From NCBI GenBank assembly GCA_958295695.1, contig OY282363.1, positions 1,738,225 to 1,802,224 of the forward strand: 64,000 nucleotides of DNA, in the 5' to 3' direction. Below the pieces are notes generated by a model. That model was not told the origin of the DNA and ran no database searches. It saw only the letters and a list, made by a program, of their open reading frames with translations. Both the position numbers and the translations under genes were made by a program. Every line of letters begins with the position of its first letter. Positions within the stretch are counted from its first letter, which is position 1. This document shows, piece by piece, positions 713 through 33,919 of the stretch. The stretch comes from an uncultured Alphaproteobacteria bacterium. Its GTDB lineage: Bacteria > Pseudomonadota > Alphaproteobacteria > SP197.

Positions 713-879
713 AGCGTTGTCGGCGCCGGCATGTCGGACCTGGTTGCGGGCCACCGGCTCAAGCAGGTGGGTCTTTCCTTCACCGTTGTCGAGCGCCGCG
801 CCGAGATCGGCGGAACCCGACTCGACAACGCCTCGCGATACAAGCGTCCGGCGTTTGGCGACCGCGTTCTCCGATCGTC

Positions 880-1241
880 CGCTCACTATCGCCCGCGGGT
901 CCTTCATCAGCAGGAACAGGCGACAGGGATCCGTGGGGCGCGGCTCGAACTCCAGAGCCTCGTACCAAGCCCGCGCCTCGTCGTCCTTGGTGTGGACAGG
1001 AAGCGCCCGGATATCGGCGGCCGCGGCGGTCGAGGATATCCTGGAAGGCCCGCCACCGCCGGTCGTCGATCCGGAACATCCGCCGGGCGACCAAGGTGTC
1101 CTCGGCGGCGGCGACCCCGGCCTCGAGCAGAAACTCCGTGACGTTCTTGTGCGACAAGGCCGCGGCCCGCTGGAGCAACGCCTTCACGCTCGGGGTCGTC
1201 CGAAACTCGATGCGCTACGACTTGTTTTCGGCGATGGCCGT
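880..1241 (-). pseudogene. eroded type II toxin-antitoxin pair: DUF1778 (TacA-like) antitoxin remnant joined by deletion to the last ~45 codons of a GNAT (TacT-like) toxin
   Basis: My minus-strand translation reads TAIAENKS*RIEFRTTPSVKALLQRAAALSHKNVTEFLLEAGVAAAEDTLVARRMFRIDDRRWRAFQDILD, a DUF1778 pattern. It has an in-frame TAG at 1215-1217, and GGAGGA at 1248-1253 is followed by ACG (1239-1241) where ATG is expected. A different frame then reads ADIRALPVHTKDDEARAWYEALEFEPRPTDPCRLFLLMKD, which is GNAT-toxin C-terminal motif. The N-terminal ~120 toxin codons are missing. Confidence 0.6.
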
Positions 1242-1361: not shown

Positions 1362-1910
1362 CTACTCGGTCGCCGCGGCCTCATCCTCTTCCTTCATCTG
1401 CTTGAGCAGTTCGGCGTTGTCCATCATGGCCTGCTTGCGGGCGCTACAGGAGCAACCGCCGTACTGGGCCCAGGTCACGGGATCGACGAAGGGGCCCGAC
1501 CACATGCCGACGCCGTCCCGTTCGGCGGCCGCGGCGCGCTCGAGATACTCCGCGCCGCGGTCTTCGTCGGGCACGGCAAGCCCGGCGTCGATCATGGCGC
1601 CGGCGAGGTCGCGGCCCGCGGCGCTGCAACGGCCCACGAGGCCCGCGCCCGTTTCCGCGATGTCCGAGCAGACGACCTCGTCGGCGCCGATCGCTTCTTC
1701 GAGATAGAGCGCCGCGTCCCAGCCGCAGGACCAGACGTTGTCCCTGGAACCGCAATTCTGGGTGATGGTCGGCGCGTGTACGCCATGGAGGGTCACCTCC
1801 CGTTCGCCGAACCGCACGGTGTCGCCGTCCATCACCATGGGTTGGCCGGCGAACTCGGCGAACGCCAGAGCGGGCGCCAGAGCGAGGATTGCCGTCAGCA
1901 GACGTTTCAC
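1362..1910 (-). CDS. secreted thermonuclease (SNase-like) family protein
   Basis: This is the C-terminal 182 codons of ORF 1362..2696. A GTG start at 1910 is preceded by GGAGGG. The signal peptide is VKRLLTAILALAPALAFA. An SNase-like core is present (MDGDTVRFG..V.LHGVHAP...GRCSAAGRDLAGAMIDAGLAV). Confidence 0.75.
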   Translation of the reverse strand: MKRLLTAILALAPALAFAEFAGQPMVMDGDTVRFGEREVTLHGVHAPTITQNCGSRDNVWSCGWDAALYLEEAIGADEVVCSDIAETGAGLVGRCSAAGRDLAGAMIDAGLAVPDEDRGAEYLERAAAAERDGVGMWSGPFVDPVTWAQYGGCSCSARKQAMMDNAELLKQMKEEDEAAATE

Positions 1911-1984: not shown

Positions 1985-2788
1985 TCACGTTTCCGCGCGC
2001 CGCAGAACGGCGATGAGCTCGTCTTCGAACGGAACGAGCGCGAGGTCGCGGCCGATGCGGGCGGCCAGCGCTTCGACGTGGCTCCGGTAGGTCTCCCGCA
2101 TGCCCTTCTCCCGGCCGCCGAGCGACCGTGCGGGGTAGGTGACGACCACTTGGGGGACGTCGGCGAGGCGCCGGAGCAGCGCGAGGGACGCGCCGTCGTC
2201 CTGCCGGTCGAGGCAGGGCAGGGTTTTGAGCGCCAACGCCAAGTCCGCGCCGCCGCTCTCGATTCCGCCCAGAACGTCGGCCCACAGGCTTTCGCCCGGC
2301 CGGCCGAGGCGCTTGAGAAGCCGCCCCGTCGCCTCCGCGACGCGGCGGTTCGCCTCCACGGCGCGGTAGCGGGTCGAGGGCGGTAGACCCATGAACGGCA
2401 GCGCGAAACCGTTGAAACCCGCCGCGACATCCAGGATGTGCGCGGGGAACCCGGTCTGGGCCCAGATGGCGGCGTAGAAGGCGTCCAGACGGTCGAGCCG
2501 CTCCGCGCTGGAGCGGTGCAGGCGGAGGACCGCCCGGCATGTCTCGACGATGTCGGCGCCGGTGTCCAGCGCATCGAGCCGGCGTTCGAGCGCGCGCAGG
2601 CTCCCGGGATCGAGGTAGGCGCCGAAAGCCTGATGCAACTTGCGCTTGGCGGCCTTCAACGCCTCGGCGGGCCTCGAATGCCGCTCGATCGCCCATCGCG
2701 CCGTTCGCTCCAGGGCCTCGGGCGCCAGGTCGCGGTACTTCGACGATGACGAGAGGACCCCGACGACCGAAGCGAGGGGATCAGCCAT
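1985..2788 (-). CDS. FmrO/Rmt/Arm-family 16S rRNA (guanine1405-N7)-methyltransferase homologue
   Basis: The 267-aa product is collinear with remembered RmtB/ArmA motifs: SSKYRDLAPEALERT; KLHQAFGAYL; LRLHRSSAERLDRLDAFYAAIW; ILDVAAGFNGFALPFM; DLALALKTLPCLDRQ; VVVTYPARSLGGREKGMRETY. The ATG at 2788 overlaps the upstream stop by 8 nt. Confidence 0.85.
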   Translation of the reverse strand: MADPLASVVGVLSSSSKYRDLAPEALERTARWAIERHSRPAEALKAAKRKLHQAFGAYLDPGSLRALERRLDALDTGADIVETCRAVLRLHRSSAERLDRLDAFYAAIWAQTGFPAHILDVAAGFNGFALPFMGLPPSTRYRAVEANRRVAEATGRLLKRLGRPGESLWADVLGGIESGGADLALALKTLPCLDRQDDGASLALLRRLADVPQVVVTYPARSLGGREKGMRETYRSHVEALAARIGRDLALVPFEDELIAVLRRAET

Positions 2789-3866
2789 CGGCCTCGCTCC
2801 GGCGCATCCTGTCGATCAACCGGGCGTAGAATCCGAGGTTGTGGCGCGTGGCCAGCCGCTCCGCCGCCGCATCGCCGATCTTGAAGAGATGATGAAGGTA
2901 GGCGCGCGAGGGGCCTTCGGGATCGAGGGACGGGTCTAGGGCCGACCGGTCTCGCGAGTGCCGTTCATGCTCCATGTAGAGAACATCATAAGATTTATTA
3001 TTTTTCAATATATTATCACTATTATCTAATGTAATATATAAACGCTTGCGACGAGCGTTGCGAGTGGGCAGGGCGCAGTCGAACAGACGGTAGCCGGCCC
3101 GCCAGGCCGCGAGCATGTTTTCCGGCTTTCCGATGCCGAGCGCATGCTTGGGGGCGTCCGCGGGCAGCAGGTCCGCGGTCATGGCGACCATGTCCGTCAG
3201 CAGGCCGTCGTCGCCGATGGGCCAGCCGCCGAAGCCGAAACCGTCGAAACCCATGCCGGCGAGCTCGCCGGCGCAACGTCTGCGCAGGTCGGGATCGGCG
3301 CCGCCCTGGACGACCGCGAAGAGCAGGGGGCGCCCGGCGGCGGCGGCGCCCGGTTCGCAGCCGGCCCGGGCGACGAATTCGTCGCGGCAGCGCCGCGCCC
3401 AGTCGAGCGTCCGTTCGATCCCGGCCCGCTGCGCCTCGGCGGGATCGTTGGGGTGGGTGCACTGGTCGAGGCAGAACAGGATGTCGGCGTCGAGATCGAG
3501 CTGGCGCCGGATACACTTCTCGGGCGTGAGGAGGCGCTTCCTGGCGCCCTTTTCGTGCCGGTAGACGAAGCCCCTGTCGGTCACGCTGCCGAGGCCCGCG
3601 CCGGACGCGGCCATCGACCACGCCTGGAAGCCTCCGGAATCGGACGCGGCGATGCCGTTCCAGCCCATGAAGCGGTGGACGCCGCCCACGGCCTTCACGG
3701 TCGAGGCGCCCGGCCGCGTGGCGAGATGCAGGCTGTTCACCATCAGCGCCTCGACGCCGCATTCGGCGAGGTCGCGGGAATCGAGACCCTTCACGACCGC
3801 GCGCGTGCCGTCGGGCAGGAACGCCGGCAGGCGGAGCGGGCCGCGGCGGGTGCCGAGGACCTTCAC
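2781..3866 (-). CDS. tRNA-guanine transglycosylase (TGT) fold protein, divergent (no Zn-cysteine cluster)
   Basis: The 361-aa product carries TGT motifs: LPAFLPDGT, SDSGGFQAW, LFCLDQCT, FGFGGW, ALGIGKPEN, LFDCALPTRNARR, SRAYLHHL, RHNLGFYARLI. The CxCxxC zinc motif is replaced by SLDPEG. The GTG start at 3866 overlaps the rsmI stop (GTGA). Confidence 0.85.
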   Translation of the reverse strand: MKVLGTRRGPLRLPAFLPDGTRAVVKGLDSRDLAECGVEALMVNSLHLATRPGASTVKAVGGVHRFMGWNGIAASDSGGFQAWSMAASGAGLGSVTDRGFVYRHEKGARKRLLTPEKCIRRQLDLDADILFCLDQCTHPNDPAEAQRAGIERTLDWARRCRDEFVARAGCEPGAAAAGRPLLFAVVQGGADPDLRRRCAGELAGMGFDGFGFGGWPIGDDGLLTDMVAMTADLLPADAPKHALGIGKPENMLAAWRAGYRLFDCALPTRNARRKRLYITLDNSDNILKNNKSYDVLYMEHERHSRDRSALDPSLDPEGPSRAYLHHLFKIGDAAAERLATRHNLGFYARLIDRMRRSEADG

Positions 3867-4573
3867 GCCCGGCCCTTCGTCCGCGGGAACTTCGGGTTGT
3901 CGCCGGCGATCACGACCGTGACCTCGCCCCTGGGCGTCTCCTCCGAGAACCGCGCCGCGAGGGTCGAGATCCAGCCCCGGGCGGTTTCCTCGAACATCTT
4001 GGTGAGCTCGATGCAGACCGCCGCCCTGCGGTCGCCATAGACCTCCAGCGCGTCGGCCAGCAAGGCGCCCAGCCGGTGGGGCGATTCGAACAGCACCTGG
4101 GTGTGGCCGCTGCCGGTTTCGGCGGCCAGGAAGGTCCGCCGCTTGCCGGCCTTGCGCGGCGGGAAGCCGCGGAACGTGTAGCTCGCCGTCGGCAGGCCCG
4201 AGAGCGCGAGCGCGGTGGCGACCGCCGTCGGTCCCGGAACCGCCTCGACCGCGAAACCCTCTTCGGTGGCCATACGGACCGCGCGAAAACCGGGATCGCT
4301 GAGCCCCGGCATGCCGGCGTCGGTGGCGAGCCCCACCTTGAGACCCCGGCGCAGCAGGCCCGCCATGCGTTCCGTGGCCCGGTCCTCGTTATGGTCGTGG
4401 CAGGAGAAGACCACGGGCGGGCTGCGCAGGCCGAAGCGCTCGTAGAGCTTGCGTGTGCGGCGCGTGTCCTCGCAGGCGAGAGCGTCGAGCGAACCCAGGG
4501 TATCGAGGACCCGCTTCGAAATGTCGTCCAGGTTGCCGATAGGCGTGCCGATCAGGATGAGCGTGCCCGTCAT
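3863..4573 (-). CDS. rsmI: 16S rRNA (cytidine1402-2'-O)-methyltransferase RsmI-like
   Basis: An internal ATG at 4573 in ORF 3863..4714 is preceded by GGAAGG. RsmI pattern: LILIGTPIGNLDDISKRVLDTLGSLDALACEDTRRTRKL...ATDAGMPGLSDPGF...VPGPTAVATALALSGLP...FESPHRL...ELTKMFEE. Confidence 0.85.
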   Translation of the reverse strand: MTGTLILIGTPIGNLDDISKRVLDTLGSLDALACEDTRRTRKLYERFGLRSPPVVFSCHDHNEDRATERMAGLLRRGLKVGLATDAGMPGLSDPGFRAVRMATEEGFAVEAVPGPTAVATALALSGLPTASYTFRGFPPRKAGKRRTFLAAETGSGHTQVLFESPHRLGALLADALEVYGDRRAAVCIELTKMFEETARGWISTLAARFSEETPRGEVTVVIAGDNPKFPRTKGRA

Positions 4574-4632
4574 GCGCCTTCCGTTCTTGACCCCGCGTCC
4601 GCGCCCCGTTTCCATGCCCGCGTTCGGGCGGG

Positions 4633-33337: not shown

Positions 33338-33414
33338 CGGGGCGTGGCGCAGTCCGGTAGCGCACCTGCTTTGGGAGCAGGGGGGCGCTGGTTCGAATCC
33401 AGCCGCCCCGACCA
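33338..33414 (+). tRNA. tRNA-Pro (anticodon UGG)
   Basis: I folded the cloverleaf by eye. The acceptor stem is CGGGGCG/CGCCCCG, the anticodon stem-loop is CCTGC-TTTGGGA-GCAGG, and the T arm is GCTGG-TTCGAAT-CCAGC. The 3' CCA is encoded. Confidence 0.9.
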
Positions 33415-33842: not shown

Positions 33843-33919
33843 GCGCCCTTAGCTCAGCCGGATAGAGCAACGGCCTTCTAAGCCGTAGGTCCCAGGTTCG
33901 AATCCTGGAGGGCGCGCCA
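33843..33919 (+). tRNA. tRNA-Arg (anticodon UCU)
   Basis: The acceptor stem is GCGCCCT/AGGGCGC, the D arm is AGCTCAGCCGGATAGAGC, the anticodon stem-loop is ACGGC-CTTCTAA-GCCGT, and the T arm is CCAGG-TTCGAAT-CCTGG. The CCA is encoded. Confidence 0.9.

Follow-up and report, generated by a model that had tools for sequence, protein, structure and literature searches.

A chromosomal rmt gene of an uncultured alphaproteobacterium lies in a conserved rsmI-TGT-rmt operon and probably encodes an intrinsic m7G1405 methyltransferase

Plasmid-borne 16S rRNA methylases defeat nearly all clinically used aminoglycosides, and to our knowledge neither the source of these enzymes nor their native role has been established. 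Where, then, would such an enzyme belong when its gene is found in a bacterial chromosome? The question is raised by a 64,000-nucleotide stretch of DNA from an uncultured alphaproteobacterium (assembly GCA_958295695.1, contig OY282363.1, positions 1,738,225 to 1,802,224), here called the window, which carries an rmt-like gene with an ATG start at 1985..2788 on the minus strand. Its 267-residue product is a predicted FmrO/Rmt-family, S-adenosylmethionine (SAM)-dependent methyltransferase whose target would be N7 of 16S rRNA G1405. We consider it probable, with good confidence, that this open reading frame (ORF) specifies an intrinsic, chromosomally inherited enzyme forming N7-methylated G1405 (m7G1405), and that it does so within a native module that modifies the decoding center.

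The protein matches the Pfam family FmrO (PF07091) over profile positions 2-253 of 255 (E=2.1e-42; 145.7 bits against a cut-off of 27), and its matches among solved structures are Sgm (4.5e-37), RmtB (9.5e-28), chain 6pi9 (5.8e-24), and RmtC (3.3e-23). We take chain 6pi9 to be RmtF, its deposition naming only a G1405-N7 methyltransferase. These full-length and structural matches bear out the family assignment of the original prediction, and every motif quoted there as a sign of collinearity with the known enzymes was located in the protein: SKYR at residues 16-19, LHQAFGAY at 51-58, LHRSSAERL...FYAAI, LDVAAGFNGFAL, DLALALKTLPCL, and TYPARSLGGREKGM. The GC fractions at the three codon positions (0.75/0.52/0.88) are usual for genes of this ~70% GC window, and the ratio of nonsynonymous to synonymous substitution rates (dN/dS), 0.21-0.28 against relatives of 56-63% identity, indicates purifying selection. 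The protein is 100% identical to the database entry P0371, and the protein of the adjoining gene, discussed below, is 100% identical to P0102; both are encoded on one contig. The closest relatives all come from Rhodospirillales or other alphaproteobacterial metagenome-assembled genomes (MAGs), and the environmental relatives considered here are MAGs or metagenome contigs throughout. The FmrO family as a whole comprises 1152 clusters (50% identity) at E<=1e-3 among 1.84 billion representatives, with at least 483 relatives among 185,579 GTDB species genomes. By homology, the ORF at 1985-2788 is thus placed as a divergent member of the FmrO/Rmt family.

Would such a divergent protein still act on G1405? 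A cryo-electron microscopy study of RmtC bound to the 30S subunit lists the residues important in that enzyme (PMC10054953), and on alignment to RmtC chain 8ghu each of them has a counterpart in the window protein. The residues docking the enzyme on the 30S subunit (RmtC Lys20, Tyr21, Arg39, Lys47, and Arg50) correspond to K17, Y18, R36, K45, and K48; those distorting the rRNA (His54, Arg211, Arg241, and Met245) to H52, R195, R226, and M230; those binding SAM (Ser107 and Asp160) to S93 and E145; and those positioning G1405 (Tyr60, Lys204, and Lys236) to Y58, K188, and R221. The position of RmtC Ser239 is occupied by Gly224, as in producer enzymes, among them Sgm of Micromonospora zionensis (PDB 3lcu). 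Sgm, a producer-type m7G1405 enzyme and the best solved relative, aligns over residues 8-262 and shares with the window protein, besides this glycine, the two-domain layout and the LKTLPCLE and SLG.R.KGM motifs. Given the conserved residues and the purifying selection, docking on the mature 30S subunit and methylation of N7 of G1405 are expected on sequence grounds. That enzymes of the m7G1405 family confer resistance to 4,6-disubstituted deoxystreptamine aminoglycosides is well established, and by analogy intrinsic resistance to drugs of the kanamycin and gentamicin types would be expected of the organism.

The rmt gene is the third and last cistron of a minus-strand operon. Directly upstream lies a gene for a tRNA-guanine transglycosylase (TGT)-like protein (2781..3866, minus strand; 361 aa, GTG start; Pfam TGT E=5.6e-79), preceded by an rsmI-like gene (3863..4573, minus strand; 236 aa) whose start, read from the sequence, is an ATG at 4573 that follows a GGAAGG ribosome-binding site. 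The stop of the rsmI-like gene and the GTG of the TGT-like gene share 4 nt (GTGA), and the TGT-like stop overlaps the rmt ATG by 8 nt at 2781-2788 (ATGGCTGA), an arrangement from which the three genes are predicted to be translationally coupled. The rsmI-like protein exceeds the cut-off of TIGR00096, the 16S rRNA C1402 2'-O-methyltransferase model (180.4 against 167.9), and matches the Escherichia coli RsmI chain 5hw4 at E=3e-43. It differs from RsmI in being shorter, spanning model positions 2-225 of 275 without the C-terminal tail; gene calls in relatives give 236-250 aa. Operon-linked RsmI copies of other phyla are 55-62% identical to it, which suggests that the rsmI-like gene has been co-inherited with its neighbors. 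The target of RsmI and RsmH, C1402, is three nucleotides away from G1405. RsmI methylation at C1402 is reportedly blocked by ArmA (Lioy et al. 2014, as cited in PMC12406665), which makes a co-adapted C1402 methylase in an rmt operon plausible.

To determine how widely this gene order occurs, we surveyed it in both directions. The forward survey started from the 80 top-ranking FmrO loci among GTDB species genomes, every one a MAG, belonging to Alphaproteobacteria, Nitrospiraceae, Dehalococcoidia, Anaerolineae, Ktedonobacteria, Armatimonadota, Planctomycetota, Hydrogenedentota, Latescibacterota, and others; 61 had at least 1.3 kb on both sides. A same-strand homolog of the window TGT-like gene was present in 47 of these 61, directly upstream of rmt in 41 with gaps mostly below 80 bp, and 29 also had an rsmI-like gene. 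Ten of the 14 loci lacking a TGT gene belong to one alphaproteobacterial subclade. The reverse survey was seeded solely with TGT peptide patterns in metagenome contigs, and of the 43 contigs extending 900 bp or more on each side, 39 had FmrO next to the TGT gene.

The two proteins have also diverged together. Across 100 loci, pairwise identities of TGT and Rmt are correlated (Mantel r=0.87, with 0/999 permutations as high), TGT always being the more conserved partner (mean 52% vs 40%). In one lineage they form a single chain of 628 aa, found as P0316 and P0368 on contigs of 23.8 and 30.5 kb and identical at 627/628 residues; its FmrO half has Arg at the position of RmtC His54 and Ala at that of Arg241. 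A candidate second fusion, P0327 (907 aa), was rejected, being an N-terminal SMC_N/AAA ATPase joined to FmrO and unrelated to the TGT genes. The TGT-rmt operon is an old, co-inherited module of many phyla. The window operon fits its general form, [rsmI/rsmH]-TGT-rmt, having a TGT gene of the same subfamily immediately upstream of rmt on the same strand with an 8-nt overlap.

What kind of TGT accompanies the methylase? We aligned 131 FmrO-linked or pattern-seeded TGTs to the Zymomonas mobilis Tgt, whose numbering is used here. Every one of them has Asp102, Ser103, Asp156, Gly229, Gly230, and the nucleophile Asp280, and 130 of the 131 have Gln203. Leu231 is replaced by Trp and Ala232 by Pro in all 131, and we therefore call these proteins WP-type; Glu235 is not conserved in them and Met260 is usually Leu. 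The window TGT keeps D102, D156, Q203, and D280, has W215-P216 at the switch, and has Asp where Glu235 would stand. The Leu231/Ala232 peptide of canonical Tgt flips, its NH reaching N7 of guanine 34 via water and its C=O binding the preQ1 aminomethyl group, with support from Glu235 in either state (PMC3660597). Since a proline at 232 lacks the NH, the WP subfamily cannot use this switch; the change lies on the side of the pocket facing position 7 of the purine.

The window TGT resembles the canonical Tgt of Z. mobilis and E. coli in fold, in the residues named above, and in Gly229-Gly230, but differs in having GGWP for GGL[AS]VGE and Leu for Met260, in lacking zinc ligands, and in not lying next to queA. 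It scores 255.8 against the TIGR00430 cut-off of 306.75 and has neither the Leu231/Ala232 pair with Glu235 nor the CxCxxC...H zinc site, whereas catalytic Asp102, Asp156, and Asp280 are kept. WP-type scores range from 256 to 309 and straddle that cut-off, so that some of these proteins are annotated as Tgt by pipelines. The zinc cysteines (CxCxxC) have been lost in the alphaproteobacterial WP-type clade (the window, P0104, P0110, P0116, L002, L005, L007-L012, L024, L026, and L108), and some of its members also lack the zinc His, while all other WP-type TGTs retain the site. The zinc-less proteins are under purifying selection (dN/dS 0.15-0.23), and an AlphaFold2 model of the window TGT (mean predicted local distance difference test score [pLDDT] 88; predicted template modeling score 0.89; TM-score 0.88 to Z. 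mobilis TGT) predicts that they would fold normally.

The window TGT also stands apart from the canonical alphaproteobacterial Tgts in overall sequence. The canonical Tgts of Z. mobilis, Paracoccus, and Magnetococcus have GGL[AS]VGE and CxCxxC, the Magnetococcus gene lying beside queA; these three are 58-69% identical to one another and 31-40% identical to any WP-type protein. Compared with the window TGT, WP-type proteins show 40-100% identity, whatever their phylum. Being nearer to WP-type proteins of other phyla than to canonical alphaproteobacterial Tgts, it is not a vertically inherited alphaproteobacterial tgt. Our literature search for a link between TGT and FmrO, or for a TGT paralog acting on rRNA, found nothing specific, and a search for TGT residues recognizing U33 and U35 yielded nothing that could be mapped onto the WP-type alignment.

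Fragments of the same module surround clinical resistance genes. When the window TGT was searched against PLSDB by tblastn, 12 plasmid records were found at 40-44% identity, canonical tgt genes reaching 31-33%. Plasmid pKP13f of Klebsiella pneumoniae Kp13 carries rsmH, a WP-type TGT gene, rmtG, and a 98-aa truncated rsmI, with 4-nt and 8-nt overlaps as in the window; on plasmid 2964TF a WP-type TGT gene is followed by rmtD2, and on p12100-NDM the order is WP-type TGT, a metallophosphoesterase gene, and rmtB2. GGWP and the zinc motif are present in the TGTs of all three plasmids, and IS91-family transposases lie beside each array. These TGTs are 64-77% identical to one another and their Rmt partners 39-57%. 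The arrays share with the window the combination of C1402 methyltransferase, WP-type TGT, and Rmt, their TGTs being 41-45% identical to the window protein by tblastn (42-44% in the multiple alignment) and their Rmts 27-36% across both measures. They differ from it in being cut by IS91/ISCR and IS26, in keeping the zinc motif, and in being led by rsmH instead of rsmI. It appears that rmtG, rmtD, and rmtB2 were picked up by IS91/ISCR-type elements from modules of this kind.

Similar "tRNA ribosyltransferase" ORFs are said to lie beside rmtA and rmtD. The Kp13 genome paper recorded a "putative tRNA ribosyltransferase" upstream of rmtG (PMC3904158), and a 2022 review placed rmtG in an operon with rsmH, tgt, and rsmI (PMC9311965). 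The operon itself has thus already been noted for rmtG, but not its breadth; in our literature search we found neither its conservation in many phyla described nor the co-divergence of the two proteins, their fusion, or the changed pocket of the TGT. The metagenome TGTs closest to the plasmid ones, at 64-69% identity, are those of L160 (OLPR01007869.1) and L115 (JAEEGL016231736.1), and the RsmH of L160 is 67% identical to that of pKP13f. The two loci are leads toward an environmental source of rmtG, rmtD, and rmtB, and not progenitors, because the L115 Rmt is just 36-44% identical.

How close is the window gene itself to the clinical genes? The acquired RmtB, RmtD, RmtG, RmtF, RmtC, and ArmA are of the same family and have the same predicted target, and the key residues of RmtC are conserved in the window protein. 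The window gene differs from these acquired genes of Gram-negative pathogens in being chromosomal and free of mobile elements. It shows neither the allele-level profile match or high identity nor the mobile carriage by which the acquired enzymes (RmtA-H, ArmA) are named: NCBIfam allele-level models give 53-103 bits against cut-offs of 500-550, the best being RmtB with 103 against 525, and none of the plasmid copies is more than 60% identical. As for the proposed relevance to the origin of the acquired genes, it holds for the module, since plasmids with rmtG, rmtD2, and rmtB2 keep the WP-type TGT neighbor (rmtG also rsmH and the truncated rsmI), but not for this lineage as a direct source.

Several observations weigh against an intrinsic m7G1405 methyltransferase in a native module. 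By tblastn the window Rmt is only 25-36% identical to the acquired enzymes (RmtB 33-36%, RmtF 32%, RmtD2 31%, RmtG 29%, and ArmA 25%), and it falls short of the equivalog cut-off of the NCBIfam "Rmt family" model NF000466 (178 bits against 250), a model trained mainly on clinical and producer enzymes. The low identity and the missed cut-off indicate that the window lineage is a cousin, not a progenitor, of the acquired genes. The acidic residue expected to contact the SAM ribose is Glu145 where RmtC has Asp160, a conservative change, and Pro stands at the position of RmtC Thr207; the T207A substitution in RmtC affects the minimum inhibitory concentration little (PMC10054953). In the alphaproteobacterial subclade lacking TGT (L013-L023, on complete or large MAG contigs), rmt is followed by the 182-aa gene described below and has no adjacent TGT or rsmI gene, so that the linkage is not obligatory. 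L016, the one of these loci that we examined closely, has rmt directly after an acyl-CoA synthetase-like gene and the loop SLGGARKNM against SLGGREKGM. Lastly, the tight coupling to TGT means that the pair may do more than form m7G1405.

This last point leads to the strongest alternative, in which methylase and WP-type TGT work in one pathway and on the same nucleotide: for instance, the TGT might excise and exchange the N7-methylated guanine, at G1405 or elsewhere, and m7G1405 would not be the native end product. The linkage of the two genes in both search directions, their co-divergence, and the natural fusion all favor it, as does the proximity of the C1402 target of RsmI and RsmH. The TGT, moreover, keeps its catalytic and guanine-binding residues while the elements reading N7 and C7 are replaced (Trp-Pro in 131/131, Glu235 unconserved), and the loss of the backbone NH that reads guanine N7, together with the invariant Trp, would fit an enzyme recognizing or expelling 7-methylguanine. 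On the other side, RmtB, RmtD, and RmtG cloned alone confer resistance and make m7G1405, no TGT being needed, and we know of no TGT that acts on rRNA or on m7G. The TGT gene is also absent from most plasmids with rmtB or armA (WP-type proteins make up 12 of the 70 TGT hits, compared with 1448 records of rmt or armA). Solo activity of rmt, these TGT-less plasmids, and the L013-L023 subclade together argue against an obligatory partnership, and we regard the one-pathway explanation as quite unlikely.

For the TGT taken by itself, joint action with the methylase on rRNA or on m7G seems to us unlikely to quite unlikely. Its being not an enzyme of the queuosine pathway but a dedicated partner of the G1405 methylase, exchanging bases on rRNA or on N7-methylated guanine, we hold to be unlikely. 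Alternatively, the WP-type TGT could be a variant of the enzyme acting on tRNA G34, under shared regulation with the rRNA enzymes.

The remaining alternatives concern the origin and state of the rmt gene and are settled largely by its surroundings. The flanking genes are glmS and genes for an ADP-forming acyl-CoA synthetase-like protein, a Rieske oxygenase, DsbA, ferritin, a pyridoxal phosphate-dependent enzyme, MobA, CoxD, CoxE, YdbH, and CoxM, and they are syntenic in L001, L002, and L004, though the Rmt proteins there are just 56-63% identical. No transposase, integrase, repeat boundary, or aminoglycoside pathway was found within ~24 kb around the operon, and both the GC content of rmt and that at its third codon positions are like those of the flanks. 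The syntenic flanks, ordinary chromosome, and flank-like GC rule out recent mobile acquisition and a producer self-resistance role, and uphold the original prediction that the copy is intrinsic to the chromosome.

It is accordingly very improbable that rmt arrived recently as a mobile resistance gene, with a genomic island carrying an environmental copy of a clinical rmt. Related modules are mobile on plasmids and a TacA-like antitoxin fragment lies ~800 bp away, but the absence of element boundaries, the shared flanks at such Rmt divergence, and the lack of any plasmid copy above 60% identity all speak against it. Equally little probability attaches to rmt being an inactive or neofunctionalized remnant that has lost rRNA methylation: the score below the NCBIfam Rmt cut-off, the D160E change, and the Pro at Thr207 point that way, but the gene is under purifying selection, has an intact and apparently translationally coupled frame, and retains all the residues whose mutation abolishes RmtC activity. 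A self-resistance gene of an aminoglycoside producer, like actinomycete Sgm, GrmA, and FmrO, is scarcely credible despite Sgm being the best solved relative, since producer enzymes (Sgm, Grm, Kgm, FmrO) stand in or beside aminoglycoside clusters, in an antibiotic context, whereas this gene stands in the rsmI-TGT-rmt operon of an alphaproteobacterial MAG with RNA-modification and general metabolic genes as neighbors to 24 kb and no biosynthetic genes nearby, and the operon recurs in many unrelated phyla. We therefore rejected the producer, mobile-element, and pseudogene explanations on context, synteny, and selection.

The operon is separated from the ADP-forming acyl-CoA synthetase-like gene by a divergent intergenic region (4574..4632) that is presumably its promoter region; the same arrangement, with a spacing of ~68 bp, is seen in L004, L002, and L001. 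No sigma-70-like consensus was found in 4574..4632, and a scan of the operon gave no convincing promoter or terminator, the only hits falling in an AT-rich patch of the TGT gene. This patch (2950..3049, minus strand) comprises ~100 nt of 31% GC in a gene of 68-70% GC, ~170-260 nt upstream of the rmt start; it encodes LYITLDNSDNILKNNKSYDVLYME and contains the sole sigma-70-like hit of the region. The GC minimum of the TGT gene lies at the same position in all relatives of the alphaproteobacterial clade (24-46%, most 24-38%), with a varying peptide, and the patch (TGT residues 281-290) is modeled at low pLDDT. The patch could be an internal rmt promoter, or a loop beside the lost zinc subdomain.

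Downstream of rmt by 74 nt lies a gene for a 182-aa protein with a signal peptide (1362-1910, minus strand; GTG start behind a GGAGGG ribosome-binding site). The secreted protein looks thermonuclease-like by eye, has no Pfam match, and gives weak NCBIfam matches to "hypothetical protein" families; its gene adjoins rmt in every alphaproteobacterial locus, including those without adjacent TGT or rsmI genes. The 650-bp gap between it and glmS contains an ORF (780-1187, minus strand) that resembles the TacA (DUF1778) antitoxin family over residues 1-54 (E=8e-16); as no toxin gene follows, the ORF looks like a remnant. Rfam and ARAGORN hits in the window are limited to tRNA-Pro(TGG) at 33338-33414 and tRNA-Arg(TCT) at 33843-33919, 30 kb away.

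Returning to the preferred explanation, an intrinsic m7G1405 methyltransferase in a native decoding-center-modifying module, the enzyme would, as Sgm, RmtB, and RmtC do, transfer a methyl group from SAM to N7 of G1405, which lies in helix 44, with the assembled 30S subunit as substrate. By analogy with RmtC, it would bind the surface formed by h24/h27/h44/h45 through its N-terminal helical domain, and G1405 would be flipped into the active site, where Lys188 and Tyr58 would position the base. The resulting m7G1405 would block the binding of 4,6-disubstituted deoxystreptamine aminoglycosides. From the conserved operon we argue that the native role would be ribosome modification and not drug defense, resistance being a consequence.

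The window therefore offers an undisturbed chromosomal version of an operon type of which pieces remain beside rmtG, rmtD2, and rmtB2 on plasmids. Operons of this type occur widely among uncultured bacteria of many phyla, evolve under purifying selection, and are always organized around a distinctive TGT paralog, and the search for the progenitors of the clinical genes is narrowed to rmt genes linked to a WP-type TGT. The operon also makes the role of the partner TGT a directly testable question, since an intact module is carried by cultured strains such as K. pneumoniae Kp13. If the TGT did act on rRNA or on m7G, it would be the first such transglycosylase, and the "resistance" methylases would be half of a two-enzyme system modifying the decoding center. 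For the lineages that carry it, the operon argues for m7G1405 as a native modification of the ribosome.

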